In this document: positions 10,027-31,865 of the stretch, piece after piece
Layout of the letters: each line of letters starts with the position of its first letter
Numbering within the stretch: position 1 is the first letter of the stretch
NCBI GenBank assembly: GCA_964391965.1
Contig: CAYMOC010000002.1
Coordinates: 16,915-80,914, forward strand
Direction of reading: 5' to 3'
Length of the DNA stretch: 64,000 nucleotides
From: an uncultured Thermoplasmatales archaeon
GTDB lineage: Archaea > Thermoplasmatota > E2 > DHVEG-1
Notes under the pieces: model-generated
The model's input: only the letters and a program-made list of their open reading frames with translations
Database searches by the model: none
What the model was told of the DNA's origin: nothing
Translations under genes and position numbers: made by a program

Positions 10027-11019
10027 GTGGAAGAGCTGAAAAAAATTATAACCATTAAGGATAAACTATTTGCTCATTTAGAAACTTGGAGGATTTATAC
10101 TATTATATGGTGTGGTCTTGTAAGTCTTACAGGTTCATGCATATCTCATGAAGGTTTTCCACCATTAATAATTGCTTTTTTTGTAACAATTACACCGATG
10201 ATGGGATGGGCGGCAGCTCTATATCTATCAGATTTTTTAGACAGAAAACTTGATGCTATAGAAAAACCCCATAGGCCTATCCCTTCTGGAAGAATCAGCC
10301 CCAAAGAAGCAATAATTGTAGGCGGAATCTTTGTGATAACAGGGCTGATTATTTCATATATCTTAGGAATCTATAACTTTATTTTAGTGTTTATAGTAGC
10401 TATACTAGTTTATTCATATACAAAGATTTCAAAATCAAAAGGTTTAATGGGCAATCTGAACCGTGGAGTTGTAATAGTCGCAGCATATTTTTATGGAGTT
10501 TTTTCAGCAAATATACATATTGAATTATTGCCAGTATATATCTGGATATTACCACTTGTATTTCTCTTTCACGACACTAACAGCAATTTAGTTGGAGCCA
10601 TTCGAGATATGAAAGGCGACAAAAAAGGAGGATATCAAACTATACCAGTCAAGTATGGCCTGGAAAAATCTGTTTATATTTCATTAATTTTAACATTTAT
10701 ATGGCATGGTATACTATTATTTTTACAATATAACTATAAATTTTTAGAACCAGTTTTTTATGTTTTTTTGTTAATCGATATTTTTATTATAGTTTCATTA
10801 TATGGTTATATGTTTAGATCTATCAAAGACTACACTCGAAAAAAAGCTTTAAATTTTCATCGTTTTTTTGTGATAGAAAGAATAATACTTGCATCTAGCA
10901 TCATATTAGGAATAATTGAAATTAACTTAGGAGTAATTATTCTGATTTTATCCTTGATAACAACTATTACATCTCAACATTATTTAAGAAGTAGATATGA
11001 GTTTGTTGATAAAAAATGA
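10027..11019 (+). CDS. UbiA-family prenyltransferase (DGGGP-synthase-like)
   Basis: It has Asp-rich motifs DFLDRKLD (DxxDxxxD), RPIPSG and DMKGDKKGG. There are about 8 TM helices. The start codon is GTG. Confidence 0.65.
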   Translation: MEELKKIITIKDKLFAHLETWRIYTIIWCGLVSLTGSCISHEGFPPLIIAFFVTITPMMGWAAALYLSDFLDRKLDAIEKPHRPIPSGRISPKEAIIVGGIFVITGLIISYILGIYNFILVFIVAILVYSYTKISKSKGLMGNLNRGVVIVAAYFYGVFSANIHIELLPVYIWILPLVFLFHDTNSNLVGAIRDMKGDKKGGYQTIPVKYGLEKSVYISLILTFIWHGILLFLQYNYKFLEPVFYVFLLIDIFIIVSLYGYMFRSIKDYTRKKALNFHRFFVIERIILASSIILGIIEINLGVIILILSLITTITSQHYLRSRYEFVDKK

Positions 11020-12011
11020 AATATGCAGTTATTGGCTTAGGTGCCGTTGGGAGTATCATTGCTGGTTTACTTTCAAAAAACAATGAAAATGTTATCTTAA
11101 TTGGTAAAAAAACACAAATCGAGCAGATTAAAAAAAATGGATTAAAAATCTCAACAAATCAATCTGAGACAATAATAGAAAATCTTAACTTATCATCAAA
11201 GTTTGCTTCTGTAGAGAAAGTTGATATACTTTTTGTATGTGTAAAATCACAGGATACTAAAAAATTATTTTTAGAACTAAAAGAGTTTCTAAAAGAAGAA
11301 ACGGTTATTGTTTCATTACAAAATGGTGTTAGAAACGCTGAAATAATAAATAAAATTGTTAAAAATAAGGTACTTTCATCAGTAGTTTTATTCAATGCCG
11401 TATACAAAAAACCAGGAAACGTCGACTTGTCAATCAGGGGAGGAATTCTATTAGAAGATGATAAAAAATATTCAAAAATAATAGATGAATTATTCAAAAA
11501 CACGGATGTAAAAATAACTCTTGTCGAAAACATAAAAAGTTACCAATGGAGTAAACTTATCCTAAATCTGCAAATAGCTGTAACTGCACTTACTGGTCAA
11601 ACAATAAAAGAATCAATTATAAATAAGGATTCGAGGAAAATTTTAGCTGAAACAATGTCTGAAGGAGTAAAAATTGTTGACAAATCAGGTGTTAAACTTG
11701 AAAAACTGCCGGGTCTTGATCCAAAAAAAATGATTAAACGGCTTAATATGCTTAATTCAATATTTTTAAGAATAGGAAGTAAATTTCTTGGTGTTTCAAA
11801 GAATGCTAGAAATTCAATGTGGCAGAGTCTTGCAAGAAATAAAAAAACTGAAATAGATTTTATAAATGGTGAAATTGTAAAACTTGCAGAGAGAAATAAT
11901 TTAGAAGCACCTATAAATGAAAAACTTGTAAAATATGTAAAACAGGCCGAAAAAAAAGACAGTGTTGGTAACATCAAACCCAAGAAGTTGAGAAAAATAT
12001 TAGATTTTTAA
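11016..12011 (+). CDS. ketopantoate reductase (ApbA/PanE) family NAD(P)H oxidoreductase
   Basis: The N-terminus MKYAVIGLGAVGSIIAGLL is a Rossmann fold. Its start overlaps the UbiA stop (ATGA), giving translational coupling. Confidence 0.6.
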   Translation: MKYAVIGLGAVGSIIAGLLSKNNENVILIGKKTQIEQIKKNGLKISTNQSETIIENLNLSSKFASVEKVDILFVCVKSQDTKKLFLELKEFLKEETVIVSLQNGVRNAEIINKIVKNKVLSSVVLFNAVYKKPGNVDLSIRGGILLEDDKKYSKIIDELFKNTDVKITLVENIKSYQWSKLILNLQIAVTALTGQTIKESIINKDSRKILAETMSEGVKIVDKSGVKLEKLPGLDPKKMIKRLNMLNSIFLRIGSKFLGVSKNARNSMWQSLARNKKTEIDFINGEIVKLAERNNLEAPINEKLVKYVKQAEKKDSVGNIKPKKLRKILDF

Positions 12012-12064: not shown

Positions 12065-12913
12065 ATGAAAAGAAATTCAAATAAACAAATTCAAGAGCAA
12101 TGGGCAAAATATTGGGATAACGTCTGGGTTCAGAAAGACGACTCAAAAAAACTTAAATCAATTAATAAAAAAGAGCAAATTTATTTTTCTTTAGCAGGCA
12201 TTATCAACTCATATATTAAAAATTATATTAAAAATGATAAAGAATACAGAATAATTGAGATTGGTTGCGGTGGTTCTTCAATATTTCCAATTTTGATGAA
12301 GAGCTTTAAAAATCTAAAAATCGCAGGTATTGATAGGTCTCTTCTTGGATGTAATTTCGTATTTGAAGGAAATGAATATAGAAATGGATCTGTTGATGTC
12401 ATCTGTGGTGATGCATTACAAATTCCAATAAAAAATAATTCTTTCGATATCTCTTATAGTATTGGCCTTGTTGAACATTTTGAAAATCAATATGAAATTA
12501 TCAAAAGCCATGTAGATCTTTTAAAAAAGGAGGGGTTAGTTGTAATAGTGATACCAAATCTAACTGGTTTTCAAAAAAAACTATTAAGATCTGAGCTTTT
12601 TAAATCCAAAACAGCATTGAACAATCAAAATTGGATTAATGGAATGAAAATAACGACAACTAATGATTTAAAAAAAATATTAAAAAAGCTAGATTGTAAA
12701 AAAATCGAAATCATACCCGCAGGAGGGTTACATCCGCTTTTAATGTTGGAATCATATTATTCAGAGAAATACTCTGAAGCAAATAAATTTTCAGATACTA
12801 TTTATAAAATCTTTTTATCAGGACTGTTTATAATAATTAATATTCCCTTTATATTTAGATTAAACATGATGAATTTATCACCTTTCATTGTAGCCACTGC
12901 AATAAAAAAATAA
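12065..12913 (+). CDS. class I SAM-dependent methyltransferase
   Basis: Motif I is IIEIGCGGSS. An acidic loop and a motif II-like region (VICGDALQIP) follow. Confidence 0.6.
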   Translation: MKRNSNKQIQEQWAKYWDNVWVQKDDSKKLKSINKKEQIYFSLAGIINSYIKNYIKNDKEYRIIEIGCGGSSIFPILMKSFKNLKIAGIDRSLLGCNFVFEGNEYRNGSVDVICGDALQIPIKNNSFDISYSIGLVEHFENQYEIIKSHVDLLKKEGLVVIVIPNLTGFQKKLLRSELFKSKTALNNQNWINGMKITTTNDLKKILKKLDCKKIEIIPAGGLHPLLMLESYYSEKYSEANKFSDTIYKIFLSGLFIIINIPFIFRLNMMNLSPFIVATAIKK

Positions 12914-12940: not shown

Positions 12941-13594
12941 ATGAGTAGTAAAATAGTTATAAATTTTTTTTCTTTTATCAAAAAAATTTTGTTTTCTGAA
13001 TTTCCTGATAAATTCAAACCCGGGAGTTTAAAAAATGTTGTAGATCTGATGTTCAGAGTTTTTGAAAAAACAGCTCATAATTTTGATTTTATAACAAATG
13101 CATATTTGAATGCATATGAAGTTATGATTGAAAAAGAGTTAAAACTAACAGAGGTATCAAAGGATGATTCTGTTTTAATCATTGGATGTGGTTCTCTGCC
13201 TTCTACATCTATTGTTATTGCTGAAAAAACTAATGCTAAAAATGTTAGTATGGATATAGATAAATCTGCAGTTGAAGCAGCTAGAAAAATATTAAAGAAA
13301 ATGAATCTTTTAGATAAAGTAAAAGTAAGACTTGTTGAAGATATAAATTATCCAATAGATGATTTTGATTTAATCTTTATTTTATATGGTGTTAAGAAAC
13401 AGGAAAAAATTTTTAGACATATTTTTGAAAATGCAAAATCAGATGTTAAAGTTATAATTAGATCATATTCAGATGATTTTAAGAATGTTTTTGATTTTAA
13501 AAATTTTAAAGTTTTAGATCATTTTATAATTGTTAAAAAAGTTAGATCTGATGTTTTTGGACCTGTTTTTTCTTTTCTTTTAGAAAAAAAATAA
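12941..13594 (+). CDS. SAM-binding Rossmann-fold enzyme, nicotianamine-synthase-like glycine loop (or methyltransferase)
   Basis: VLIIGCGSLPSTSIVIAEK resembles the NAS motif (F/V)(I/V)GSGPLPLTSI(V/L). The protein is 217 aa. Confidence 0.4.
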   Translation: MSSKIVINFFSFIKKILFSEFPDKFKPGSLKNVVDLMFRVFEKTAHNFDFITNAYLNAYEVMIEKELKLTEVSKDDSVLIIGCGSLPSTSIVIAEKTNAKNVSMDIDKSAVEAARKILKKMNLLDKVKVRLVEDINYPIDDFDLIFILYGVKKQEKIFRHIFENAKSDVKVIIRSYSDDFKNVFDFKNFKVLDHFIIVKKVRSDVFGPVFSFLLEKK

Positions 13595-13601: not shown

Positions 13602-14978
13602 TTATTTTTTTATTTTAGAAACTATTACTTTTATTTGATCTGAACGTGCATCTTTTTGTATATGATCTGTTTCTGTTACTCTGACTTTAACACTTTTTCC
13701 TATTTTTTGTTGAAATCTTTTTTGAAGTTCATTAATTAATTCTTTAACACTTACTCCTTGGTTTCTTTGTTTTTCATCTATTACGATTAATATTTCAACG
13801 TCATCAAGATCATGTTGCACTATTTGGAATTGTTTTATTTTATAAGAGTTAAAAAATTCCATTGTTTTTGCAGGGATACCAGTTACACTCAATGGAGAAA
13901 GTGTTTTTCCATTTGGAAGATAAATTAATTCTGATGTTCGGCCTTCGATGTGTTTTATTAATTTTGAAGTTATTCCACAACTTGTTTTTTTATCAATAGG
14001 TACAACTATGTCATCTATACCTGTATATCTTATTATTGGGGTTCCTTTCCCGTATAGTTTTGTTATTACTGTATGACCTGGTTTGTTTAAAGGAACGGGT
14101 TTATTGTTATCATCAAGTATTTCCATGTAGACATAGTCTGAGTGGATGTGGAAAAAGTTGCCTTCAACACATTCGAAACCTATTGGTCCTCCTTCTGTTG
14201 TTCCATAAATGTCAAAAACGCGTGTGTTGAATGCCTTTTCTACATATTTTTTTGTGTACTCATCAAGTGTTGAACCTCCAGAGCCTATGAATTTTGGTTG
14301 AATGTTTTTTCCTTGCCCATTGTGTTTTAAATATGCTAGTTGTCTAAGCATGTTAGGATCAGTAGCTAAAAACTCTGGTTGGAAAACATTTAGTTCTTTG
14401 ATTATTTTTTCTGGTTTTTCACCTAAATGCAGATATTTTACATGATCCATTGATATGAATTTTTTTGCGAAAGGCATTAGACTTTCTGAGAAAAAAGCGT
14501 TTTCTGCACTACCTGGTTCTACATCTATTATCAGACATGATTTTGTAGTTCTCCAGTTTCCACCATATGCTTTTAAAACTCTTATAAAAGCAAGCAGGCT
14601 TTTGATTGCAGCAAAACGGTCGATATAAATAAAAACTGGTTTACCAGTAGAGCCACTAGTAGATATTGTAAAACCGTCTTTTGTTTTAAAATTATAAGGT
14701 TTAATGTTTACAGGATAGTTATTTCTTAAATCATCTTTTGTGATGAAAGGAAGTTTACCGATATCATTTATTCCATGTATATCATCGGGATGAACTCCAG
14801 CTTTTTTGTATTTATCATGATACATTGGCACAGTGTATGCATATTTCACAATTTTTCTAAGTTGTTTATCCTGATATCGTCTAAGTTTTTCTTTGTCAAA
14901 ACTCCATGGTCTATTGATATCAGAAAGATAATTTTTGCCTAGATTATATAGAAATTTAGGATCGATAAAGAAACTCAT
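13602..14978 (-). CDS. PaaK/coenzyme F390 synthetase-like adenylate-forming enzyme
   Basis: It has the AMP-binding P-loop TSGSTGKP and an N-terminal region typical of COG1541. Confidence 0.65.
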   Translation of the reverse strand: MSFFIDPKFLYNLGKNYLSDINRPWSFDKEKLRRYQDKQLRKIVKYAYTVPMYHDKYKKAGVHPDDIHGINDIGKLPFITKDDLRNNYPVNIKPYNFKTKDGFTISTSGSTGKPVFIYIDRFAAIKSLLAFIRVLKAYGGNWRTTKSCLIIDVEPGSAENAFFSESLMPFAKKFISMDHVKYLHLGEKPEKIIKELNVFQPEFLATDPNMLRQLAYLKHNGQGKNIQPKFIGSGGSTLDEYTKKYVEKAFNTRVFDIYGTTEGGPIGFECVEGNFFHIHSDYVYMEILDDNNKPVPLNKPGHTVITKLYGKGTPIIRYTGIDDIVVPIDKKTSCGITSKLIKHIEGRTSELIYLPNGKTLSPLSVTGIPAKTMEFFNSYKIKQFQIVQHDLDDVEILIVIDEKQRNQGVSVKELINELQKRFQQKIGKSVKVRVTETDHIQKDARSDQIKVIVSKIKK

Positions 14979-15098
14979 TTTTCAAATATTTCCTCTTTTT
15001 TTGCTCTACATGTATTATTAACACAAGATATTTAACTTTTAATAATAGAACTATATTATTTGATTTAAAGGGAGGCGTCTTAACTGAGCGTGTTTTCT

Positions 15099-16412
15099 AT
15101 GATTCGTGGATTTTTAGCTTTAAAAATTCATGAAAGAAACTCTAGAGAAAAAATACTTAAAATTCAAGAAAAAAAATTCCGTAAAATTTTAAAATTTGCC
15201 TATAACAATTCTAAATTTTATCATAATCTGTATAAATCAAAAGGTATTTCAGAGGAGGAATTGGATAATATACCTGTTGAAAAAATACCTGTGGTAGATA
15301 AAGAAACATTAATGGAAAATTTTGATGATGTGGTAACAGTAGATGATGTTTCCAAAAAAGAGGTTCTGAGTTTTTTAAATGAAAGTAAACATCCTAATGA
15401 TCTTTTAAAAAACAAATATCATGTTATTCATTCATCAGGTTCCTCTGGTAAATTAGGTTTGTTTCTTTACAGCAAAAAAGAATGGGACAGCATTTACCCA
15501 TATATTACAAAAGCTTATGATTTCAATTTCAGAAAAAACCGTTCTGTTTTTATAGGTGCAACAGGAGGACATTTCGCAGGAGCCAGCTTTAGTAGTTGGG
15601 GTGGAAAAGGAATACCTGGTTTATTTAATGAACCACTTATACTTAATGTAAATGAACCAATAGATCAGATAATAAAAAAACTAAATAATTTTAAACCAAC
15701 AATTTTAGGTGGTTATTTTAATGCTTTAAAAATTCTTGCTCAGAAAAAAGAAAATGGTTTACTCAAAATTAATCCTAAAATATTAGTAAACTGTGGGGAA
15801 GGACTAAACCTTAAAGACAAAGAATTTATTGAGAATGTTTTCGATGCACCTATGTCAAATTTGTATAGTTTTGCTGAATGTATTGTTTTAGGATTTGGAA
15901 AGGATGAATATGAAGGCATATACCTTTTTGATGATTTAGCAAAAATTGAATTTAAAAAAGATTATATAATTGTTACAAACCTGTATAATAAAACAGAGCC
16001 GATAATTAGATACAGAATTGATGACTATATTTCATTAAAAAAAGATAAAAAAAACAAGTATCCCTTTACACTAGTAAATGAAATAATTGGAAGAGCAGAG
16101 TTTATAATTTGGTTTAAAAATGAAGAAGGAAACAAAGATTTTATTCATCCTTTGATTTTTACAGATTTTTTTGTTAAAGGATTAGATAAACATCAAATAA
16201 TTATAACCGGTGAATCTTCATTTATTTTTAAAGCAGTTATTAAATCTGATGAAAAAAAGAGAGTTTTAAAGGAAATAGATAAAAAATTAGAAAAAATTTT
16301 ATTAGATAAAAAATTTTCAAATGTCAAATACCAAATCAAAGAAGTTGATGAAATTCCTGTTAACCCAAAAACAGGTAAATATAAACTAGTAATAGATAAG
16401 AAAAAAAATTGA
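15099..16412 (+). CDS. PaaK-like adenylate-forming enzyme paralogue with degenerate P-loop
   Basis: Its architecture matches 13602-14978, but the P-loop is HSSGSSGKLG. The ATG at 15099 is preferred over the GTG at 15090. Confidence 0.5.
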   Translation: MIRGFLALKIHERNSREKILKIQEKKFRKILKFAYNNSKFYHNLYKSKGISEEELDNIPVEKIPVVDKETLMENFDDVVTVDDVSKKEVLSFLNESKHPNDLLKNKYHVIHSSGSSGKLGLFLYSKKEWDSIYPYITKAYDFNFRKNRSVFIGATGGHFAGASFSSWGGKGIPGLFNEPLILNVNEPIDQIIKKLNNFKPTILGGYFNALKILAQKKENGLLKINPKILVNCGEGLNLKDKEFIENVFDAPMSNLYSFAECIVLGFGKDEYEGIYLFDDLAKIEFKKDYIIVTNLYNKTEPIIRYRIDDYISLKKDKKNKYPFTLVNEIIGRAEFIIWFKNEEGNKDFIHPLIFTDFFVKGLDKHQIIITGESSFIFKAVIKSDEKKRVLKEIDKKLEKILLDKKFSNVKYQIKEVDEIPVNPKTGKYKLVIDKKKN

Positions 16413-16416: not shown

Positions 16417-17814
16417 TTAATCATCTCTTATAAAAAACATTCTAAGTCCTGCTTTAATAAAACGGAAATCCCATTTTTTAAAAGCTCTAAAAATTTGTCG
16501 AAAAAGATATTTAGGATTAAAATAAAATTTTTTATGAGCATATAAACAGTAATCATTTAGCTCCTCTTTTGACAGTTTACTTAATCCTCTGTTTGAGTCT
16601 GCATCCACAATATATTCATCTGATCTGACTTTGCCATTTTTCACAGCTTCATCCCACATCTCGGAACCGCGGTAATAACCAAGAGTTAAAAAATGTGCGA
16701 TATCCAATGGAATACTTCTAGCAAAACGAATTGTATCCTCAATATCTTCTTTTGTTTCCATTGGTGCACCAAAAATAAAACTACCAGAGGTTATGAAACC
16801 CATTTTGTGGCTAAGATGTACTGCATTACGAATTTGATCAGGAGTTGTTCTTTTATTATAAAAATCTAAAACTTTCTGATTAGCTGATTCGATACCAAAA
16901 GAAATAAATTTTACACCGGCATCCTTCATTTTTTTATAAATTACTGGATCTGCTGAATCTACTCTAGCAGCCATAACCCAGAAATTTAGATTAAAATTAT
17001 TCTCGATTACTTTATCCATTATTTTTCCGACACGTTTCTTATTTGCAAGAAAATTATTATCAACAATTATAACAGTTTCAAAACCATCTTTTACAATCTT
17101 ACGAAGCTCTTTGATGACATTTTCAACAGATCTCTCACGATAACATGGATCTATTGCATTATAACCACAGAATCTGCAATTATATGGACAACCCCGTGTT
17201 GTGATTATAGAAGTTGTTTTACCATCGGTCATTTTTTGACCTAAGATATAACCATAGTCATATTTTTCAACAAGATGGCGAGCTGGAAAAACGATCTTAT
17301 CTAAATCTTTTATAACATCTAAATCCGCGGTTTTTTTAATCAAACCTTTTTTATCACAATAACAAATCCCTTTAATCGCTGATAGGTCTTTTTTACCGTT
17401 CAAGGCATCAACAATATCAAGTATGTTTTGCTCCCCTTCCCATTTAACACAAATATCTGAATCAAAATCCATAAGAGCATCTTCTGGATCTAACGCACAA
17501 TGAGGGCCACCAATTAAAAAAGGTTTATTTTTTTCAATGTTTCTAATAAATTTTGCTAATTCTTTTGATTGCTCAAAAGAACTTGTACAAATAGTTAGAC
17601 CTATAACATCTGACCATGAAATCAATGATTTAAGTTTTTCACGTTCAACATTTTCAGCAGTTAAATCTAATACTTCAATACTGTGACCGTCTTTTTCTAG
17701 AATTGCTGAAAGATATAATATTCCCAGAGGTGGAGAATAAGGATTAACCGGTAAGGTTTTTTTATCTGCGATTCTAAATCCTCTACCTGGAGGGAAAATA
17801 AACAAAAAATTCAT
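16417..17814 (-). CDS. B12-binding radical SAM protein
   Basis: It has an N-terminal cobalamin-binding-like domain and the motif RGCPYNCRFCG (CxxxCxxC). Confidence 0.7.
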   Translation of the reverse strand: MNFLFIFPPGRGFRIADKKTLPVNPYSPPLGILYLSAILEKDGHSIEVLDLTAENVEREKLKSLISWSDVIGLTICTSSFEQSKELAKFIRNIEKNKPFLIGGPHCALDPEDALMDFDSDICVKWEGEQNILDIVDALNGKKDLSAIKGICYCDKKGLIKKTADLDVIKDLDKIVFPARHLVEKYDYGYILGQKMTDGKTTSIITTRGCPYNCRFCGYNAIDPCYRERSVENVIKELRKIVKDGFETVIIVDNNFLANKKRVGKIMDKVIENNFNLNFWVMAARVDSADPVIYKKMKDAGVKFISFGIESANQKVLDFYNKRTTPDQIRNAVHLSHKMGFITSGSFIFGAPMETKEDIEDTIRFARSIPLDIAHFLTLGYYRGSEMWDEAVKNGKVRSDEYIVDADSNRGLSKLSKEELNDYCLYAHKKFYFNPKYLFRQIFRAFKKWDFRFIKAGLRMFFIRDD

Positions 17815-17828
17815 TTTTAGATCCTTTT

Positions 17829-19157
17829 TTAAATATTAAAATCATTTTTGTAATATCTTCTAAATGTAACATTAGTCCCCATAGGAAGTAATGCTCCCAT
17901 TCTCCTAACTGTTGTTAAAATCCTTGTGTTTCTTTTTATGATATTCTTCCACGAGTAAAATTCTTTAGCGACTTTTTTACTCCCGTTTAATAATTCTTCA
18001 ACGGTCATATTTTTGGGTTCAAAAACAACATCAACCTGATTATATTTACTCCAATCTTTAGTAAAAATACGTCCTTCTCTATCAAGCCTATCAAATAAAG
18101 GCGTACCTGGATACGGCGTTAAAATATTTATTTCAAGAACATCTATTTCAAGTTCATTTATTTTTTCAAGAGTTGCATCAAAAACATCAGGTGTGTCTTC
18201 ATCAAAACCAAATATTATCCCCCCTTGAATTGACATCCCGTAATCATGAACACGATCTATCATTTTACTAAAATCTTCAACCTTATTATGTGTTTTTTTT
18301 ATACCATTAAGAGCAGCCTGACTAACTGATTCAAAACCTACAAACCATTCAACACAACCAGATTCTCTAGCCAGCTGTAAAAATTCATCATCAGCTTTTA
18401 ACAAAACATTAGTTGTACCATTAGACACCCAACTTTTATTTATCTTATTTTTAATCATTTCCTTGAAAAGTTTTTTAGCATATTTTGGATTCGCAGTTAA
18501 ATGAGGATCATGAATTGTAAAGAGTCGGTTAGGCATTTCTTTCATTTCATTTATTACATTTTGTATAGGTCTTTGTTTAATACCATGCTCGCAGAAACTA
18601 GCAATTGCACAAAACTCACACCTGTTGGGACAACCACGTGTTGTCTGAACAGCACCCATAATAGGATTATGTCTGATAAGATCTCTTCTTATAGGAGGTA
18701 TGTCCTCGGGTTTATAGTTTGTATCTTTTTCATAAATTTTTTTAAGTTTTCCTTTCTCAAAATCAGCAAGAAGCTTAGGCCAGTTCGATTCAGCCATACC
18801 TAAAATAATACTATCAGCATGTTTCAAAGCCTCTTCAGGCACAGCAGTTGGATGATAACCTCCAAGAACTACTTTTTTACCCCTTTTTCTAAACTCATCA
18901 GCTATTTCATAGACACGTGGAGCTGTCATAGTATAACAAGTAATACCTATAAGATCTGCATCAGTATCAAAATCAAGGGAATCATAGTTCTCATTAACGA
19001 TTTCTACATCATATTTTTTAGGAGTGATTGCTGCAACATGGGGCAAAGTAATTATTGGATAACCAAAAAGAATAGAAGCCCATGAGCTTTTATCATTTAC
19101 AGTAGTTGCACCATGTTCAATCCTTGGAAACACAAGAAGTACTTTAATAAAGTTCAA
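17829..19157 (-). CDS. B12-binding radical SAM protein (DUF4070-like C-terminus)
   Basis: The radical SAM motif is RGCPNRCEFCA. It is a clear paralogue of 22762-24045. Confidence 0.7.
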   Translation of the reverse strand: MNFIKVLLVFPRIEHGATTVNDKSSWASILFGYPIITLPHVAAITPKKYDVEIVNENYDSLDFDTDADLIGITCYTMTAPRVYEIADEFRKRGKKVVLGGYHPTAVPEEALKHADSIILGMAESNWPKLLADFEKGKLKKIYEKDTNYKPEDIPPIRRDLIRHNPIMGAVQTTRGCPNRCEFCAIASFCEHGIKQRPIQNVINEMKEMPNRLFTIHDPHLTANPKYAKKLFKEMIKNKINKSWVSNGTTNVLLKADDEFLQLARESGCVEWFVGFESVSQAALNGIKKTHNKVEDFSKMIDRVHDYGMSIQGGIIFGFDEDTPDVFDATLEKINELEIDVLEINILTPYPGTPLFDRLDREGRIFTKDWSKYNQVDVVFEPKNMTVEELLNGSKKVAKEFYSWKNIIKRNTRILTTVRRMGALLPMGTNVTFRRYYKNDFNI

Positions 19158-19270
19158 ACCTCCCTAATTAATATTAAACTATTTATTGAACCTAAATAAT
19201 TTTTATGATGATTTATCCTTAAGAAGGGGAAGTATATTTAATCTTTTTTATTAGGTGATTAATAAAAAAA

Positions 19271-20587
19271 TCAAAAAAGTTTATCAAAATCCGAGATGAA
19301 ATAATCGGATTTATTTATTTCAACAGACTTAAAATCTATTTTAATTTTTGGATAGAGTTGAAATTTTGTTTTAATTTTTTTATTTAGACCATGTGAATTT
19401 AAAACTAAATTTAAACCAAAACCTTCAGGTGGTTTTAAAAAATCTAAGCTTATAGAACTATGATTTGTGTTAAATAATTGTCTTTGAGGTTCAAATTTAC
19501 AAAACCCTTCTAAATCTATTCTTCTATCGCCATTTGAATAAAAACCTTTTACAGTTCCAGGTTGTTCATAAACTATATATGCATTCTTATTGTCAGATAA
19601 TTTAAATAGAAAACCATATGGGTCAGTTTTTTTCTTAAAATTTATTTTGAATTTTTCTTTATCATCCTGAAAGATTAAACTTATTTCAGTGGGGTAATAA
19701 ATATCATGATCTTCTGAATATTCAATTTTTTTATATTCAAAACATCCATTAAAAAATTCTTTATATTTGCATCCATCCTTAGATAAAATAATTGTGCCTA
19801 TAACAGGGCCTTTTAATATCCATCCTAAAATATTACCATAAAAAAGAGTCCAACCATTATCAAAAACTGCCCATGCCCAATCATAACCAAGAGGGTTATT
19901 GTCTTTACTAAAAGCTAAGGAATTTGGGATTCTTGGTTTTTTGCATTGCAACCATTTACCCATTAGTTTAGCATAAGTTGAAAGACTTTTTTTAATATTT
20001 CTTGAATATGTAAACCAGTTTGTATATGAAAAATCTCCCCATACATGTTCATAATATCCAGAGCCGTTTACTGAAAAATTATTTTGATTTATGTTTAACA
20101 AACCTGAGATTTTACATTTTGGGATAAAACCATACCTGTAAAAACCTAAACCCATTGGAAGCCAGCCGTTAGTTGTTCCTTGGGATACCCAATGTGGTAG
20201 TGCTTCTGATTTATATGTTAAATTGGTTTGTATATTGTTTTTTTTATCATTCAAAAAAATTTTATAATCTGGGAATAAACCTTCGATGTATGAATCTTTG
20301 TAATTTATTTTTTGAGTTTTGTGATCTGCATATATTTTCAGTTTTTTTCGCTGATTTTCAGAATAATAACTATAATGTTTATTTTCATCTAAGTCGAAAA
20401 GAGTTATAAAAAAATTTGAGCCGTATTCTTTTGATTTTTTGAACCATTCGCCAAAGGAGGCTTTTAAATTCCATTTTTTTTTATTATCATTTTGTTTTAA
20501 AAAAGCTTCGAAACACCACCACTCTATTGCACTTTTTTCATGTTCTTTTTCATCAGAACAGCTCCAAGGATTTTTATTATCAACCAT
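19271..20587 (-). CDS. CrtC/AttH-like (carotenoid 1,2-hydratase/lipocalin-like) protein, tentative
   Basis: HEKSAIEWWCFEAFL resembles the H..EWWY.TGhL N-terminal motif of the CrtC/AttH family. The protein is Trp/Tyr-rich and beta-rich. The internal ATG at 20587 avoids overlap with the divergent gene. Confidence 0.35.
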   Translation of the reverse strand: MVDNKNPWSCSDEKEHEKSAIEWWCFEAFLKQNDNKKKWNLKASFGEWFKKSKEYGSNFFITLFDLDENKHYSYYSENQRKKLKIYADHKTQKINYKDSYIEGLFPDYKIFLNDKKNNIQTNLTYKSEALPHWVSQGTTNGWLPMGLGFYRYGFIPKCKISGLLNINQNNFSVNGSGYYEHVWGDFSYTNWFTYSRNIKKSLSTYAKLMGKWLQCKKPRIPNSLAFSKDNNPLGYDWAWAVFDNGWTLFYGNILGWILKGPVIGTIILSKDGCKYKEFFNGCFEYKKIEYSEDHDIYYPTEISLIFQDDKEKFKINFKKKTDPYGFLFKLSDNKNAYIVYEQPGTVKGFYSNGDRRIDLEGFCKFEPQRQLFNTNHSSISLDFLKPPEGFGLNLVLNSHGLNKKIKTKFQLYPKIKIDFKSVEINKSDYFISDFDKLF

Positions 20588-20682
20588 AGACAAAAATTGT
20601 ATTAAATAGATTATATAAATATGTTTATCATACATATAAAAAAGTTTTTTTATAGGATAAAACATATAAAAAATGGTTTTCT

Positions 20683-21699
20683 TTGCAGATGAAAAAAACA
20701 AAAGTTGACATAATAGGCGGGGGAATATCAGGATTAGCCGCAGCCATAGCAATAAAAAAACTTAACAAAAAAATAGATGTAAATATCTATGAAAAACACA
20801 AAAAAATAGGATACAACCCAGAAGGAAGAAGATGTGGAGAAGCCCATTCAATAGAAGGAAAATGGAAAAAATGGAAACCAAACAAAAAAAGCATATTCAA
20901 TGAAATATACAAAGTCGAAACAATAGTCGGGAAAAAAACTTATACACTAAAAAGAAAAAAAGGAACATCCTGCATATTAAACAGACAAGAATTCATATCA
21001 AATTTAGGAAAAAAAGCAGAAAAACTTGGAGCATACATACAAACAGATAACAAAATAAAAACAATAAAAGAATTAGATGCAAAATACATAATCGATGCAT
21101 CAGGATGCCCTAGCTTTGTAAAAAAAGAATTAAAAATTAACCATGGAATAACAGGAAAAACATATCAACAAACAATAGAAAACTCAAATTTTTTCATAAA
21201 AGACACCGTTAAAATATTTATAACAGAAAAAACAGGCTATTATTGGATTTTTCCAAGAAATCCCGATAAAAAAGAAATTAATCTAGGTGTAGGCATTGTC
21301 GGAAAAAAACAAGCTAACTTAAAAAAAATATTAAATGAATTTAAAGAAAAATACAAAGTCACAGGAGAAATTAATTACAAAACAGGAGGGTTGATACCGG
21401 TCGGGCTGCAGAGGCCGCTTAAACATGAAAATATACTATTTGTTGGGGATACAGGAGTCGGCACTTTTCCGTATACTGGAGAGGGAATATACCGTGCTCT
21501 ATTAAGTGGAGATATCGCAGCGGATTGCATCGTCAAAAAACAAATAAGAAGATATCCTCATGAAATAAATCAAAATTTTATCAAATGGGATCTTATTGGA
21601 AAAAATGTAATAAGGATAAGCTCAGTATTAGAAAGTATAAGCCCAAAAGCTGTTGTTTCAATGCATCAAAAATATCTCAATTTTTTTATTAGCAATTGA
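20683..21699 (+). CDS. geranylgeranyl reductase-family FAD-dependent oxidoreductase (short, 338 aa)
   Basis: It has the FAD-binding motif DIIGGGISGLAAA and the GGR-family motif FVGDTGVGTFPYTGEGIYRALLSG. Confidence 0.55.
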   Translation: MQMKKTKVDIIGGGISGLAAAIAIKKLNKKIDVNIYEKHKKIGYNPEGRRCGEAHSIEGKWKKWKPNKKSIFNEIYKVETIVGKKTYTLKRKKGTSCILNRQEFISNLGKKAEKLGAYIQTDNKIKTIKELDAKYIIDASGCPSFVKKELKINHGITGKTYQQTIENSNFFIKDTVKIFITEKTGYYWIFPRNPDKKEINLGVGIVGKKQANLKKILNEFKEKYKVTGEINYKTGGLIPVGLQRPLKHENILFVGDTGVGTFPYTGEGIYRALLSGDIAADCIVKKQIRRYPHEINQNFIKWDLIGKNVIRISSVLESISPKAVVSMHQKYLNFFISN

Positions 21700-21735
21700 A
21701 TAGAAAATAATATTATTACTATTTATTTTTAAATT

Positions 21736-22716
21736 TTATCTATCAAATTTTTTGGGATACATGGTGTAACCAAATTCGTCAAAATAAAAAATCATTTTTT
21801 TATAAATGTATTCTCTAAGAAACTTTACTTCTCGGGCAAGATTAAGATTTCTAGGCTCTACATAATCCTTAAAATCTACGTCAGTTGTTACATCTAAAAA
21901 ATCAAGTACTTCATCCATTGTTTTATCTGTTTTATTACAAAGTGACTCATATGTAATAGAAACATAATCATTATCATTTAACTTATGTATATTATTTAGA
22001 TAAAAACTTGTTTCTTTTGAAGCCCTATTTATAATATCAAAAACACCAGTAGGAAAAAAACCTGAATAATATAAACGATTTAATGCTAAAAGAATAGGAT
22101 TTTCATATGTTTTATTATATTTTTTTGAAAACATTGCAGTATACAAATTCTTTTTCTCTAATAATTTCTGCCATGCCCTCATTGTAGAACTGATAACTGC
22201 TAGTGGATTTCTGTTGATAAAAATAAATTTGGCATTTGGAAAATGTTTTTTTATAAATAAAAAATTTGGATAATCATATGGGTTTTTAAGAAGAACAGGA
22301 TAATTATTTTTAGATATAAACATAATTTTTTGACATAATTGTTTTAAAAGAGCTGTGTTTTCCAAAGAAGTTTTCTCAGACATGTTTTTTTTAGTGTAAA
22401 TGTAAACATATTCATGAGCGTAATCAGCTGTTACTTTAATTCGATCAATTTTTCTATTAGTGATTCCTTTTGATTTAAAAACTTCATTAAGTTCTTCCTT
22501 TGTATCTTGTTCAAGGTTATTTATATGATTATAAATTAACTCATCATATTTTAAAATATGATACGCAGTTACAATATTGAGTTTTTTTGTATCACCTAGC
22601 ATTTTGTAAAGAATGCTTGTACCAGATCTATGCAAACCCATGATAAATATAGGATAAAAATCCATATTTTCTATTAGGTTAAGATGTGTTTTGTCAATAT
22701 TTTTTTCTTGTAACAT
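21736..22716 (-). CDS. PAPS-dependent sulfotransferase
   Basis: The 5'-PSB motif is GLHRSGTSIL and the 3'-PB motif is RNPLAVISS. Confidence 0.65.
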   Translation of the reverse strand: MLQEKNIDKTHLNLIENMDFYPIFIMGLHRSGTSILYKMLGDTKKLNIVTAYHILKYDELIYNHINNLEQDTKEELNEVFKSKGITNRKIDRIKVTADYAHEYVYIYTKKNMSEKTSLENTALLKQLCQKIMFISKNNYPVLLKNPYDYPNFLFIKKHFPNAKFIFINRNPLAVISSTMRAWQKLLEKKNLYTAMFSKKYNKTYENPILLALNRLYYSGFFPTGVFDIINRASKETSFYLNNIHKLNDNDYVSITYESLCNKTDKTMDEVLDFLDVTTDVDFKDYVEPRNLNLAREVKFLREYIYKKMIFYFDEFGYTMYPKKFDR

Positions 22717-22761
22717 TTTTTTATCAGAAAAATATAGTTTATTGTTATAAAATAATTTTTT

Positions 22762-24045
22762 TCAGATGTTTAGTTTTTCATTTTTGTAAAAATATCTAGT
22801 ACTTAAACCTGAAAGAAATGATGTTAAAACATCTATAACATTAAAACCATTGTTTTTTATACTTCTTTTTAAACAGTTTTTAACCGAGTAAAACTCTCCA
22901 GCTATCCTTCTGATACCCTCATATAATTCATCAGCCGTCATTTCTTTTGGTATGAAATTTACTTTACCTTCTTCATATCTTGACCAATCATAACTTGTTA
23001 TCCTTCCTTCTTTTTCCAATCTATCAAATAGTGGGGTACCTGGATAAGGTGTTAATATACTAAATGTTGCTGAATCAAGACCCCAATCATACATTGCTTT
23101 AAGTGTTTCATCAAAACAATCTGGTGTGTCATAATCTAACCCAAATACAAAAAAACCTGTAACTTTCATATCATGATTTTTGATTTTTTGGATAGCTTTT
23201 TCATAATCTTCAACCTTATTTGTACCCTTACCAGCAGAATCGATGCTTTCTTGGGATATAGATTCTATACCAAGATACCATCTTACAACGCCTGCTTTTT
23301 TAGCTAATTCTAAAAATTCATCATCTTTTGCTACAATATTTATATTGCCAAATGCATAAAATTTTTTATCAAGTTTCGCCATTTCCCTAAAAAGTTTTTT
23401 TGTATATTTTGGATTGATCGTGAGTGATGCATCTGCAAAAAATATTGATTTAGATTTTATTTTTTTCATTTCGTCAATTACAGATTCTACAGGACGGGCT
23501 CTAAAAATTCTTCCCTCCACCCTATTCATAGCGCAGAATTCACAACCAGTTGGACAACCTCGAGATACTTGGATTCCCTCCATAAAAGTATAATTACCGA
23601 CATCATGTCTTGCCTGTGGTATTTCTTCAGGTTTTACTAATCTTTCAGGTGTATATATTTTTTTAAGTTCTCCTTTTTCTAAATCCTTTAAAAGTTTAGG
23701 CCAAGTAAGTTCTCCTTCTCCAATAACTATTGCATCAGCATGCTCTTTTACTTCATCAGGCATAAGAGTTGCATGATAACCACCAATTACTACAGGCATA
23801 TTTTTTTCTCTAAATTTTTTTGCGACTTCATAAGCTCTAAGAGAATTATAAGTTAGAGACGTGATACCGACCAAATCATATTTTTTATTAAAATCTATAG
23901 TTTCATATCTTTCATCAATGATTTCAACATCATGTCCGTCCGGTGTAATACCAGCGATTTGTTGTAAAGTCAAACTAGGATAAGTAATCTTATTTAACAT
24001 ACTTCTTTTTGTATTTGGATGAGGAGAAACTAATAAAATTTTCAT
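22762..24045 (-). CDS. B12-binding radical SAM protein
   Basis: The radical SAM motif is RGCPTGCEFCA. It is a paralogue of 17829-19157. Confidence 0.7.
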   Translation of the reverse strand: MKILLVSPHPNTKRSMLNKITYPSLTLQQIAGITPDGHDVEIIDERYETIDFNKKYDLVGITSLTYNSLRAYEVAKKFREKNMPVVIGGYHATLMPDEVKEHADAIVIGEGELTWPKLLKDLEKGELKKIYTPERLVKPEEIPQARHDVGNYTFMEGIQVSRGCPTGCEFCAMNRVEGRIFRARPVESVIDEMKKIKSKSIFFADASLTINPKYTKKLFREMAKLDKKFYAFGNINIVAKDDEFLELAKKAGVVRWYLGIESISQESIDSAGKGTNKVEDYEKAIQKIKNHDMKVTGFFVFGLDYDTPDCFDETLKAMYDWGLDSATFSILTPYPGTPLFDRLEKEGRITSYDWSRYEEGKVNFIPKEMTADELYEGIRRIAGEFYSVKNCLKRSIKNNGFNVIDVLTSFLSGLSTRYFYKNEKLNI

Positions 24046-24289
24046 CTTTTAACACATCTAACAAATTTTTTTTATAAATTTTTTATATACAATTCTTATA
24101 TTTGTAGTTTTACCAACAAAACCCTGTTAATAAACTAAATTTTAGCGTAAATACACTCTATACTGGTTTAGTTTACTAAATAGGTTTTATTTAAAATTTT
24201 TTGATAGATCTATCCAAAAGAAAAAATTGATATCAACAGTAGTTTTTAATATTTCATGTTTTATTTTCCAATACTGGCGAATTGATATT

Positions 24290-25687
24290 ATGAATGAATT
24301 CTTTAATCCAAAAAATACATTTTCGTTTTTAAAAACATTTTTTTTCGATCCAAAAAGATTAAAGAATTTTTCCAAAGAAAAAATGGAAAGATATAGAAAT
24401 AAAGCATTTAGAAAAACAATAGAGTATGCTTATACAGTTCCTTTATACCATAAAAAATATAGAAAAGCAGGAGTACACCCTAAAGATATAAAAGGATTTA
24501 AAGATATAGAAAAACTACCTTTCGTTACAAAGAAAGACCTTAGAGAGGCATCCTTAGAAGAGATTATTTCAAAAGGTGCAAAAAAAGAGAATAAATATGT
24601 TGTTTGCACCAGTGGTTCTACTGGAAAACCTGTAAATTTTTTTACTGATTTTCAAACATTATCAAAAAGTATTGGGATTTACTTGAGAGAATTAGAGATT
24701 TTTGATTTACATTGGAGAAAGTCAAAAGTAGCACATATTGGAAATTTTAGTAAAGACAAAGCAGATTCTGCTTTCGAAGAAGGTTTTGTATCCAAAACAC
24801 GTGTTTTTTACAACCATAGTAACTCTCTTTCAATTAACAATTTTGAACCGATAGATAAAATTATGAAAAAATTAGACAGTTTTAAACCCGATCTGATTTT
24901 ATCCTACCCGGTGACTTTTAAAAATTTAGCTTTTTTAAAAAATAAAGGATATGGTAAAAACGTTAACCCCCAGGTTTTAGCTGTTGGCGGTTATGTTTTA
25001 GATGAATATACCAAAAAATATGTAGAGGATGCTTTCAACTGTAAAATGTTAAATGTTTACTCATCAGCAGAATCAGGTGCAGATATTGCATTTGAATGTT
25101 TTGATGATACTTGGCATGTAAACCATGATTTTTTCCATGTTGAATCTATAGATGAACAAAGAACTCCTGTTGATGATAAAACTTCAGGTCATGTTGTTTT
25201 GACAAGGATGTTTGGACAAGGAACGCCTATAGTTAGATACACAGGTATGGATGATTGGGTTACAATAGAAGAAGATTATAACTGCAGTTGTGGTTTAAAT
25301 ACCCCTATTTTAAAAGGTGGTATTAAAGGTAGGATGAGCACAAGTGTTATTTTACCAGATGGAAGAGTTTATCCTTCTGCATCATTTGCTTTTATATCTG
25401 TTATTTTAAATAAGTTTAATACAAAAAAAGTGAAACAATTTCAGATAATTCAGAATAAAATTGATGATATTGAGATTTTACTTGTAATAGATGAAGTCCT
25501 TAGAGATAAACCTCCCGCGGTTGATAAAATTTTTAATAAAATAAAAGAAAAATATCAAGAGATCTGCGGAGAAAATGTTAATATCAAAGTAAGAGAGGTA
25601 GATGAAATTAAATCTGAAAGAGGGAAACCTTCACCTTTGGTGATTTCAAAGATTGATACTGAAGAGGCATATAAAAAAATATTATAA
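24290..25687 (+). CDS. PaaK/coenzyme F390 synthetase-like adenylate-forming enzyme
   Basis: The P-loop is TSGSTGKPVNFF. It is a close paralogue of 13602-14978. The start is at the internal ATG at 24290. Confidence 0.65.
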   Translation: MNEFFNPKNTFSFLKTFFFDPKRLKNFSKEKMERYRNKAFRKTIEYAYTVPLYHKKYRKAGVHPKDIKGFKDIEKLPFVTKKDLREASLEEIISKGAKKENKYVVCTSGSTGKPVNFFTDFQTLSKSIGIYLRELEIFDLHWRKSKVAHIGNFSKDKADSAFEEGFVSKTRVFYNHSNSLSINNFEPIDKIMKKLDSFKPDLILSYPVTFKNLAFLKNKGYGKNVNPQVLAVGGYVLDEYTKKYVEDAFNCKMLNVYSSAESGADIAFECFDDTWHVNHDFFHVESIDEQRTPVDDKTSGHVVLTRMFGQGTPIVRYTGMDDWVTIEEDYNCSCGLNTPILKGGIKGRMSTSVILPDGRVYPSASFAFISVILNKFNTKKVKQFQIIQNKIDDIEILLVIDEVLRDKPPAVDKIFNKIKEKYQEICGENVNIKVREVDEIKSERGKPSPLVISKIDTEEAYKKIL

Positions 25688-30218: not shown

Positions 30219-31784
30219 TTAGTTAAAGATATGGCATGGAAGGATAATATCAAATAGATTTTTAACAAAATTTTTGAAAATATTCAATATTTTAAAGATA
30301 AGTGTTTTTTCTGTAAAGAATCGGTTTGTATTTGAGGTTTCTGTCCATGTGCTTTCTGCTCCATGTTCATCCTTTGTTTTGACTTTTATAAAATTTTCAT
30401 ATTCACGTATTATTTTACATGATTCTCCAGATTCGTATGGACCTAACCAGCCTGAATTGTCTCCGTTTTCCCATTGAAAAAGATAGTAAATTTTGTGTTT
30501 TTCTGCATCTGTTGTTGTAGCAGAATATCCTTCGTTTCCATTTATTGTTGTTCTTTCTACATCAGGTTTACTAGGTGCAGTATTGTAAATATTTAGATTT
30601 AAATTTTGAGACCATTCACTTTCCTGACCGTACACATCCATTACTTTTACTTTTATATCAAAATTTGTTGTAGAGGTTACACTCCAACTATGAGTTATAG
30701 TCATTTCTTCTCCAGATGGTTTTGGGGGGAGCCATCCTGTGTTTGTTTCATCCCCCCAGTCAAAAAAGTAGTATAATCCGTTGTTATCTGGATCTGTTGA
30801 GCTAGCAGTAAATGTTATTGTTTCACCGGCATTACTTCCATATATATCTGGATAGAAATTAATTGGTTTTTCTGGTTTTTGGTTTTCACCTATTGTCATA
30901 TAGTATGATTCCTGGTTTATTTCACATTCTTTGTATTTTATTTTAAAAAATCCTTCTTCTCCCCAGTTTGTTCCCCAACTGTTTTTACATATCCAATAAC
31001 CTGGATTATCATTGTATCCAACTATTGAAACGCAGTGTCCTCCAAGTTTTGATCCCCATACATGTTCATATATACCGCTGTTGTAATATTTGAAATCTTC
31101 ATAAACGATAAATGTTGCTACAAGTGGACCATGAGTTACTATTGCATCTTTCATACCTTCAATGCTATTTGCTCTTCTGTAATTTGAGATTTTTGCTACT
31201 TTTTTCTGCCAGTTTTCACATGCATCATCACATTCTGTGTTTTTTGAGTCATATGGTAGACATGTTTCAGGTGGAACTCCAGTTGTTTTTAATCTATCAA
31301 GAGCGTTTTTTGGAAGCCATCCTGAACCGCATGTTCCTCCGCCGCAGAAAAAAAGTTGGCCCTCCGATAGATCAAAATCATAAAAGTTGTCTGAGTTTGA
31401 TTTTAGGTAAACTTCAAATGCTGAAAGAGTTCCAAAAGCTACACAGCTTCCGCAATCTTCTTGGTTTTTAATTGGTGTTGTATAATCTACTCCGTTAATA
31501 TTTCTCCAATCGTAACTTTCAGGGAGATTTGAGGAGGTTGGTTTTTGATCTGGAAGGTTGTCAGTTTCTTCTCTTTTTGCTCCTAATAGTGTTTTCATTT
31601 CTTCATTGGTTAGTTGTGATATGCTATTTTCAGCTGCAATCCATTCTGCATTGTTTTTTTCTATCGATGCCTGGATTTGATCTATTGTGTTATTTGATTT
31701 TGCAATGATGGAGTTGAAGTTTAATGAGATTATTAATAAAATTGTGTAAGCTATTATTATTTTTGGTTTTAACATATTTGACAT
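30219..31784 (-). CDS. secreted papain-like (C1) cysteine protease with two C-terminal PKD domains
   Basis: It has a signal peptide. The catalytic-Cys motif is CGSCVAFG. PKD-like motifs are YFFDWGDETNTGW and YLFQWENGDNSGW. An SD-like GGAGAG lies upstream of the ATG at 31784. Confidence 0.6.
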   Translation of the reverse strand: MSNMLKPKIIIAYTILLIISLNFNSIIAKSNNTIDQIQASIEKNNAEWIAAENSISQLTNEEMKTLLGAKREETDNLPDQKPTSSNLPESYDWRNINGVDYTTPIKNQEDCGSCVAFGTLSAFEVYLKSNSDNFYDFDLSEGQLFFCGGGTCGSGWLPKNALDRLKTTGVPPETCLPYDSKNTECDDACENWQKKVAKISNYRRANSIEGMKDAIVTHGPLVATFIVYEDFKYYNSGIYEHVWGSKLGGHCVSIVGYNDNPGYWICKNSWGTNWGEEGFFKIKYKECEINQESYYMTIGENQKPEKPINFYPDIYGSNAGETITFTASSTDPDNNGLYYFFDWGDETNTGWLPPKPSGEEMTITHSWSVTSTTNFDIKVKVMDVYGQESEWSQNLNLNIYNTAPSKPDVERTTINGNEGYSATTTDAEKHKIYYLFQWENGDNSGWLGPYESGESCKIIREYENFIKVKTKDEHGAESTWTETSNTNRFFTEKTLIFKILNIFKNFVKNLFDIILPCHIFN

Positions 31785-31865
31785 GTTTATCTCTCCTTTT
31801 AAAAGCAATAACAAAAATAATTAACATACGTTAACTATATAATATTTTTCCAAAAAAAGAAAAAA

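Follow-up and report, generated by a model that had tools for sequence, protein, structure and literature searches.

A radical SAM and AttH-like gene island of uncultured Thermoplasmatota as a candidate for the tailoring of isoprenoid lipids

Unsaturated, hydroxylated and methylated tetraethers are on record from environmental samples. The enzymes that make hydroxylated glycerol dialkyl glycerol tetraethers (hydroxy-GDGTs) were described as unknown before a 2025 preprint by Garcia et al. (bioRxiv 10.1101/2025.10.20.683597), which reported two proteins from Ca. Bathyarchaeota B1_G15 and a Guaymas scaffold: Ted, a B12 radical S-adenosylmethionine (SAM) enzyme from Bathyarchaeota that desaturates saturated GDGT tails, and Hgs, an AttH-like protein whose gene overlaps ted and which hydrates the Ted double bonds to give hydroxy-GDGTs. 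According to the same preprint, enzymes sharing the AttH-like fold hydrate isoprene double bonds to tertiary alcohols, and the related B12 radical SAMs Gmm, Cgm and Pgm methylate GDGTs and glycerol monoalkyl glycerol tetraethers (GMGTs). Here we analysed a stretch of 64,000 nucleotides (hereafter the window) from an uncultured Thermoplasmatales archaeon (assembly GCA_964391965.1, contig CAYMOC010000002.1, positions 16,915 to 80,914 of the forward strand), in which three radical SAM genes with B12-binding domains, called A, B and C below, lie close to a gene for an AttH/CrtC-like double-lipocalin protein. Judging from architecture, fold and gene order, Ted plus Hgs appears to be the closest known system, and the window may hold a new variant of this kind of radical SAM plus AttH-like module, set in an isoprenoid gene island of uncultured Thermoplasmatota.

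The likeness is chiefly one of arrangement: in relatives of the window a B12-domain radical SAM gene stands immediately upstream of an AttH/CrtC-fold gene on the same strand, and both systems are archaeal with an isoprenoid-lipid gene context. The differences lie in gene number and company, since the window has two paralogues plus a third family, its radical SAM genes do not overlap the AttH-like gene, and the partners found here (PaaK-like, nicotianamine synthase (NAS)-like, reductase, UbiA, geranylgeranyl reductase (GGR) and sulfotransferase genes) are not described for Ted/Hgs. The GDGT ring synthases GrsA and GrsB, as well as Gmm, Cgm and Pgm, are likewise archaeal enzymes of class-B architecture that act on unactivated carbons of isoprenoid chains; they differ in neighbourhood, and A, B and C are not annotated or recognised as any of them, a separation that goes by annotation and gene neighbourhood.

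A sequence-only reading of the window had proposed three B12-binding-like radical SAM genes, and all three proved to be real. The open reading frames (ORFs) are complete and intact where that reading had placed them (Table 1), and each encodes a PF02310 (B12-binding) domain scoring above the Pfam gathering score of 32.1 bits (53.2 bits in A, 42.9 in B and 47.4 in C) together with a PF04055 (Radical_SAM) domain at 64-98 bits (98.2 in A); B and C additionally match the Pfam family DUF4070. Each protein has one CxxxCxxC motif (CPYNCRFC at residue 209 in A), a GGxH motif within the N-terminal domain and few other cysteines. The assignment to radical SAM enzymes of class-B architecture is solid, with all three N-terminal domains above the cobalamin-binding threshold, and from this architecture the enzymes probably use cobalamin. 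A motif scan of the three proteins found the DxHxxG-like motif, proposed earlier as a check on cobalamin binding, in none of them; because this motif is, to our knowledge, not expected in class B radical SAMs, judging from their solved structures, we set its absence aside as uninformative.

B and C had also been read as paralogues with extended identity, and their alignment bears this out from end to end, with 188 identities over 436 positions (43%, E 1e-131) and with the quoted terminal peptides pairing up as proposed (ITPKKYDVEIVNENY with ITPDGHDVEIIDERY; EFYSWKNIIKRN with EFYSVKNCLKRS). By the comparison set beforehand, A is 27% identical to C (E 1e-26) and 24% identical to B (E 2e-19), so that B and C resemble each other far beyond the background level of class-B-type radical SAMs. 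A neighbour-joining tree of 80 A-, B- and C-type sequences placed B and C in separate clades and the A-type sequences in a distant third group, with median identities of 68% within the B clade, 64% within the C clade, 44-45% between B and C and 22-26% between A and either. At 84 alignment positions the B and C clades conserve the same residue, and at a further 30 each clade conserves its own, several of these differences being non-conservative. By this pattern of conservation both copies are maintained, apparently with diverged specificity.

The history of the pair was followed in related loci, namely 80 metagenomic loci collected via the AttH-like protein plus other loci in hand; counts out of 46 below refer to those of at least 8 kb. 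C is directly followed by B in at least 11 loci, and the order C, B, AttH-like gene was seen in at least seven. In the commonest layout these three genes share one strand and face an operon of PaaK-like, NAS/CntL-like, reductase and UbiA genes, and we take the C-B-AttH-like layout as ancestral. In the window, by contrast, B and C are not adjacent: 3.6 kb with three other genes lie between them, and the minus strand reads C, sulfotransferase, GGR paralogue (on the opposite strand), AttH-like gene, B and A. A 93% identical relative (locus L001) shares the C, sulfotransferase, GGR paralogue and AttH-like part of this layout, its contig stopping inside the AttH-like gene, and both it and the window are a rearranged derivative of the island. 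The two orthologue clades, together with the adjacency of C and B in relatives, indicate that the duplication was tandem in origin but ancient; the earlier proposal of a tandem duplication followed by divergence is supported, in a window whose layout has been rearranged. Orthologues of B in relatives are 64-77% identical. C has 4784 homologues at E<=1e-10, of which the best 120 are 63-90% identical, the named ones being metagenome-assembled genomes (MAGs) of Thermoplasmatota/Thermoplasmatales; a scan of a genome collection with C, made with narrow peptide patterns, returned 6 loci.

The second element of the comparison is the AttH-like protein. Its gene and B lie on the same strand with a 113-nt gap, B starting downstream of the AttH-like gene and ending 14 nt upstream of A. 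Called mechanically, the AttH-like ORF reaches 20752 and would run into the beginning of the divergent GGR gene; the conserved start, judged by homologues and their alignment, is the Met at 20587, the extension not being conserved, which leaves an intergenic region of ~95 nt, and an identical database protein (P0121) of 464 aa starts 26 codons further upstream. An AF2 model built with 40 homologues (pLDDT 91.5) matched AttH (2ich, E 5e-14) and kievitone hydratase (7a0t, E 1e-11) best in Foldseek, followed by Fsa2/Phm7/CghA-type pericyclases and phosphosteroid lyase. Across the 40 homologues 56 residues are invariant, and 28 of these proteins match the Pfam CrtC N-terminal lipocalin domain; the window protein itself scores 18 bits, under the 22.5 threshold. 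Its likeness to CrtC carotenoid 1,2-hydratase, kievitone hydratase and AttH therefore resides in the two-lipocalin fold, while sequence identity is just 10-15%. As the AttH/CrtC fold is also common to Diels-Alderases and phosphosteroid lyase, a hydratase activity of the protein is not assured.

In relatives the gene that follows B encodes the AttH-like protein, ~430 aa long and on record without Pfam annotation. Among identifiable genes directly upstream of the AttH-like gene on its own strand, B is the most frequent (18/69 cases), and in other loci A-type or UPF0004-type radical SAMs replace B in this position, which suggests that the AttH-like protein can exchange one type of radical SAM partner for another. 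The UPF0004 neighbours, found in three loci, carry UPF0004 and Radical_SAM domains and are MiaB-like without a TRAM domain, not of the B12-domain type. In six loci the island has two AttH-like paralogues, with 37-51% identity to the window protein, that are neighbours or lie a short distance apart.

The wider set of partners recurs with uneven frequency. B-type radical SAMs are present in 28 of the 46 loci and NAS/CntL-like transferases in 27, followed by PaaK-like enzymes in up to 25 (13 of the PaaK486 type and 12 of the PaaK458 type, whose loci may overlap), UbiA in 17, C-type radical SAMs in 15, A-type radical SAMs (42-50% identical to A) in 12 and the short GGR paralogue in 6, where its orthologues (57-69% identity) adjoin the AttH-like gene. 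Glycosyltransferases (L007, L094) and sulfotransferases (the window, L001, L010 and L033) are occasional members. Two islands occupy the same chromosomal site, marked by UbiA, two response regulators, RNase HII and an aminotransferase, and differ in their tailoring genes, L008 holding C, B and the AttH-like gene and L094 a 60% identical orthologue of A; the same site with different tailoring genes makes the island cassette-like. The island is modular and is conserved among uncultured Thermoplasmatota, mostly those of sediments. Searches of the literature brought up no previous account of it, and none of the families in a 2026 review on lipid radical SAM enzymes corresponds to A, B or C.

Given this conservation, the placement of A, B and C among characterized enzymes matters for any proposal on their function. 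The families to which the sequence-only reading had pointed, HpnP/HpnR, BchE and similar, turned out not to be the right ones. Against curated NCBIfam models, HpnJ, HpnR, BchE, PhpK, MgmA, ArsL, BzaD, AprD4, TsrM-type and MiaB/RimO were all rejected as far under their cut-offs, and the HpnP model was absent among the matches of the three proteins. The best models (BchE, HpnJ, PhpK, TIGR04072, HpnR, MgmA and AprD4) gave scores stated as 4- to 10-fold under the curated cut-offs. For A, the top matches were HpnJ, BchE and PhpK at 157-165 bits (cut-offs 480-600). HpnR (TIGR04367, cut-off 650) reached 107.5, 64.8 and 93.2 bits for A, B and C, respectively; BchE (TIGR02026, cut-off 481) reached 163.5, 108.4 and 151 bits, with only the C-terminal two-thirds aligning for B and C; and AprD4 (NF033070, cut-off 500) reached 72.2, 38.3 and 59.4 bits.

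What BchE, HpnJ, HpnR and TIGR04072 share with A, B and C is the B12 domain joined to a radical SAM core, and BchE and HpnJ also share a DUF4070-type C-terminus with B and C. TIGR04072, a 'lipid biosynthesis B12-binding/radical SAM' family of ladderane clusters, has PaaK-like (DVU_1553-type) and methyltransferase (DVU_1556-type) partners in its clusters, and models of both types find weak matches in the window. The three proteins differ from all four families in scoring 65-165 bits against cut-offs of 360-650, in their archaeal host and in a context that is isoprenoid, not tetrapyrrole, hopanoid or fatty acid. Among solved structures, the closest by sequence is 9ccb (E 1e-22 with A), which is MgmA, the glutamine C-methyltransferase of methyl-coenzyme M reductase (MCR) (PMC11796369). 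By fold, an AF2 model of C (pLDDT 91.7) gave full-length Foldseek matches to AprD4, MgmA, TsrM, MiaB, CysS, TokK and OxsB, with AprD4 (6fd2) on top (E 2.5e-22, TM 0.75) and MgmA at E 9e-21. MgmA and AprD4 are thus the nearest structures by sequence (A to MgmA) and fold (C to both), while neither an MCR nor an aminoglycoside context is found here and their NCBIfam models stay far under cut-off. A role in protein modification or in peptides that are made on the ribosome and modified after translation (RiPPs), prompted by the MgmA-like matches, was set aside, since the annotated ORFs showed no evident gene for a substrate or precursor and the context is isoprenoid.

Reasoning from domain architecture, paralogy, the AttH-like fold and gene co-occurrence, and by analogy with Ted/Hgs, we favour with moderate confidence the reading that the island tailors isoprenoid membrane lipids, through radical C-H functionalisation of the chains followed by hydration and decoration; the substrate, the use of cobalamin and every reaction named here are predictions. 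The UbiA protein, which resembles digeranylgeranylglyceryl phosphate (DGGGP) synthase, would build an ether-linked, possibly ester-linked, isoprenoid lipid, and the GGR paralogue would fix the saturation pattern of its chains. In the radical SAM enzymes a 5'-deoxyadenosyl radical, probably with cobalamin, would abstract hydrogen from unactivated chain or backbone carbons, leading to desaturation and/or C-methylation, and B and C may have diverged toward different positions or substrates. The AttH-like enzyme would then turn an isoprene double bond into a tertiary alcohol by hydration, and a hydroxyl group could be decorated by the sulfotransferase in the window or by glycosyltransferases in relatives. 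The several radical steps on one scaffold that the sequence-only reading had proposed are plausible from the co-occurrence of the genes.

An isoprenoid substrate is suggested by the DGGGP-synthase-like UbiA, the GGR paralogues, PcrB, a UbiX-like gene, mevalonate-type neighbours and the AttH-like fold. The best PDB match of UbiA, 6m31, is the DGGGP synthase of M. jannaschii, followed by chlorophyll synthase, and aromatic prenyltransferases were not matched in the PDB sequence search; its NCBIfam scores are under all cut-offs, and orthologues in related loci are 56-64% identical. A core ether-lipid/isoprenoid group with UbiX-like, PcrB-family and inositol monophosphatase family genes lies 8 kb from the radical SAM island, and the window holds three GGR paralogues within 64 kb, counting the short one in the island. 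In one relative (L007) the island borders on genes for proteins with GHMP-kinase, UbiD, LpdD-chaperone and AcnX domains, and in another (L011) LpdD-chaperone and AcnX genes are near it; we take this set to be the modified archaeal mevalonate pathway.

Several points weigh against lipid tailoring. We know of no role in archaeal core-lipid tailoring for the PaaK-like and NAS/CntL-like proteins, which are the most constant partners and would fit a small-molecule pathway equally well. A tetraether synthase was not identified in the window. AprD4, the top fold match of C, has a B12-like domain that is not known to bind cobalamin, so that cobalamin use by A, B and C stays a matter of probability. 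As for the Ted/Hgs analogy, Garcia et al. define Ted homologues by BLASTP E<=1e-100 to Ted and a length of at least 500 aa, and A, B and C, at 427-465 aa, are shorter; Hgs homologues (E<=1e-80) are reported almost only from Methanobacteriota and Bathyarchaeota, with Thermoplasmatota lacking Hgs (bioRxiv 10.1101/2025.10.20.683597), so that the AttH-like family of the window is at best a distant relative of Hgs.

Among the alternatives, it is possible, if clearly less probable, that B and C are sequential C-methyltransferases acting on isoprenoid tails (Me-GDGT/Me-archaeol) or on the glycerol backbone (butanetriol and pentanetriol tetraethers, BDGT/PDGT), with the AttH-like enzyme acting independently on double bonds from incomplete GGR reduction. 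Methylation is generally the commonest chemistry of class B radical SAMs, with Gmm, Cgm and Pgm as examples from the preprint, and two diverged paralogues would suit two successive or position-specific methylations. A dedicated GGR paralogue beside the AttH-like gene could moreover supply a biosynthetic double bond that is hydrated without a desaturase, as in the Has route (bioRxiv 10.1101/2025.10.20.683597), and a BDGT/PDGT methylase is not among the enzymes named in that preprint or in the 2026 review. However, coupled chemistry accounts better for the close placing of B beside the AttH-like gene on one strand, and nothing ties these organisms to BDGTs or methylated GDGTs. We regard it as rather unlikely that the C-B-AttH-like module and its variable partners make an undescribed class of archaeal membrane lipid, be it one with desaturated-hydroxylated-sulfated/glycosylated chains or one in which B and C are the missing BDGT/PDGT backbone methylases.

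More doubtful still is the proposal that the island makes a prenylated small molecule (a cofactor, or a quinone-like or opine/nicotianamine-like compound) instead of a core lipid. Here a carboxylic acid would be activated by the PaaK-like enzymes to its acyl-AMP or acyl-CoA form; an aminobutyrate or methyl group would come from the NAS/CntL-like enzyme, reduction of a keto group would fall to the reductase, prenylation to UbiA, and alkylation of the activated intermediate to the radical SAMs, in the manner of CysS and TokK with their pantetheinyl substrates. Such a pathway would account for the three PaaK-like genes and their recurring pairings with particular radical SAM types, for the closeness of the NAS-like protein to CntL and thermonicotianamine synthase and of a PaaK-like protein to phenylacetate-CoA ligase, and for CysS and TokK among the structural matches of C; gene content that varies at one conserved site, as between L008 and L094, is typical of natural-product clusters. 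It sits poorly with a UbiA of the DGGGP-synthase/chlorophyll-synthase and not the aromatic type, with GGR and AttH-like enzymes acting on long isoprenoid chains, with the isoprenoid and ether-lipid genes nearby, and with the very wide occurrence of C-type proteins at high identity among the best 120, which suggests a core function. Very improbable, finally, is that the B12-like domains bind no cobalamin and that B and C act as radical dehydratases of the AprD4 type or as other redox-neutral enzymes on a polyol or sugar head group, for although AprD4 tops the Foldseek matches of C and reductases, glycosyltransferases and a sulfotransferase are present in the islands, its margin over MgmA and TsrM is small, its sequence score lies below those of the BchE, HpnJ and ladder_B12 models, and A, B and C all pass the PF02310 threshold.

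For uncultured sedimentary Thermoplasmatota there has never been a direct measurement of membrane lipids (PMC11868695). A conserved radical SAM pair combined with an AttH-like hydratase candidate and isoprenoid genes offers a testable candidate for the lipid modifications recorded in environmental samples, and tailoring of isoprenoid lipids along the lines favoured here would extend the 'desaturate then hydrate' logic to a phylum reported without Hgs. If the module does make an undescribed class of lipid, by chain tailoring or by backbone methylation, its genes would serve as source markers for orphan sediment lipid biomarkers. Heterologous hosts for a lipid test exist in M. acetivorans expressing tes and in T. 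kodakarensis.

Table 1 Features of the radical SAM island and of the isoprenoid genes around it (positions in the window)
Feature	Position	Strand	Length and remarks
Fourth radical SAM	7855-9483	minus	542 aa; PF04055; divergent from UbiA operon; possible island member
UbiA-family prenyltransferase, DGGGP-synthase/chlorophyll-synthase type	10027-11019	plus	PDB 6m31 E 3e-20
Ketopantoate-reductase-family NAD(P)H oxidoreductase	11016-12011	plus	TIGR00745 203 bits, above cut-off 141
Class I SAM methyltransferase	12065-12913	plus	282 aa; PF08241 and related families
NAS/CntL-like small SAM-dependent transferase	12941-13594	plus	217 aa; NCBIfam CntL E 1.5e-16
PaaK-like adenylating enzyme	13602-14978	minus	458 aa; PDB 4r1l (phenylacetate-CoA ligase) E 6e-31
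F390-synthetase-related adenylating-enzyme paralogue	15090-16412	plus	440 aa; TIGR02304 E 3e-34, below cut-off
Radical SAM A	16417-17814	minus	465 aa; class-B architecture, family distinct from B/C
Radical SAM B	17829-19157	minus	442 aa; paralogue of C
AttH/CrtC-like double-lipocalin protein	19271-20587	minus	438 aa; fold model
Short GGR paralogue	20683-21699	plus	338 aa; PF22578 GGR_cat
Sulfotransferase	21736-22716	minus	326 aa; PF13469 E 1e-22; 45 nt downstream of C
Radical SAM C	22762-24045	minus	427 aa; paralogue of B
PaaK/F390-synthetase-like adenylating enzyme	24227-25687	plus	divergent from C; NCBIfam PaaK-type E 1e-26, all below cut-off
UbiX-like flavoprotein	31866-32498	minus	overlaps PcrB-family GGGP synthase
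PcrB-family GGGP synthase	32437-33198	minus	
Inositol monophosphatase family gene	33223-34008	minus	after PcrB-family gene
GGR-family gene	49039-50301	minus	420 aa
GGR-family gene	56095-57291	plus	398 aa

The remaining genes of the island recur to different degrees. The short GGR paralogue scores 124 bits against TIGR02032, below the cut-off of 158.8. Relatives of the sulfotransferase are 88% identical in L001 and 45% identical in L033, and L010 has a 204-aa sulfotransferase directly downstream of its AttH-like gene. The divergent pairing of C with a PaaK-like gene is found in L001 and three other loci. The 458-aa PaaK-like enzyme, which recurs across related loci, falls below cut-off for the NCBIfam models PaaK, FlxY and DVU_1553, and its divergent partner, the F390-synthetase-related paralogue, has homologues at 53-57% identity in three loci; in L094 a 442-aa gene without a Pfam match occupies the equivalent position, the two being likened by position only. 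The reductase position is taken by an ApbA-type reductase in four loci and by an SDR/epimerase-type enzyme in two, and the class I SAM methyltransferase has a counterpart in one related locus only (L075).

The best PDB matches of the NAS/CntL-like protein are CntL and thermonicotianamine synthase; it is closest to aminobutyrate transferases of this kind (CntL, nicotianamine synthase), not to methyltransferases, and its location near a ketopantoate-reductase-family gene loosely recalls the logic of opine metallophores (CntL/CntM). The fourth radical SAM gave TIGR04013 and MiaB-like/MJ_1487-like N-terminal matches, all below cut-off, and its arrangement between an M18 aminopeptidase gene and UbiA recurs in L030 at 78% identity. 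It was considered as a tetraether synthase (Tes/GDGT-MAS) and rejected, the PDB search at E<=0.01 returning only RimO, MiaB, TM_1862 and MgmA; close kinship with the UPF0004-type radical SAMs beside AttH-like genes was likewise rejected, at 23% identity.

The window as a whole has ~30% G+C throughout and an archaeal gene content that includes a split GMP synthase, NucS, an AglB/STT3 homologue and a PcrB-type geranylgeranylglyceryl phosphate (GGGP) synthase; tRNA genes and Rfam families were not found in it. Six ORFs of 253-729 aa, located in the regions 46840-49029 (plus strand), 51292-55248 and 59189-60274 (plus strand), lack a Pfam match at E<=1e-5. The AglB/STT3 oligosaccharyltransferase homologue (40853-45790, minus strand, 1645 aa) carries C-terminal CarboxypepD_reg, SdrD_B and Big_1 domains and is preceded by an undecaprenyl-phosphate-translocase-like gene (37938-38846). 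Peptidase genes are dense, comprising an M32 carboxypeptidase, an M18 aminopeptidase, a 531-aa papain-family C1 protease and a 1221-aa S8 subtilase (21-1385, 6481-7836, 30219-31814 and 34298-37963), and fit the protein-degrading lifestyle proposed for sedimentary Thermoplasmatota.

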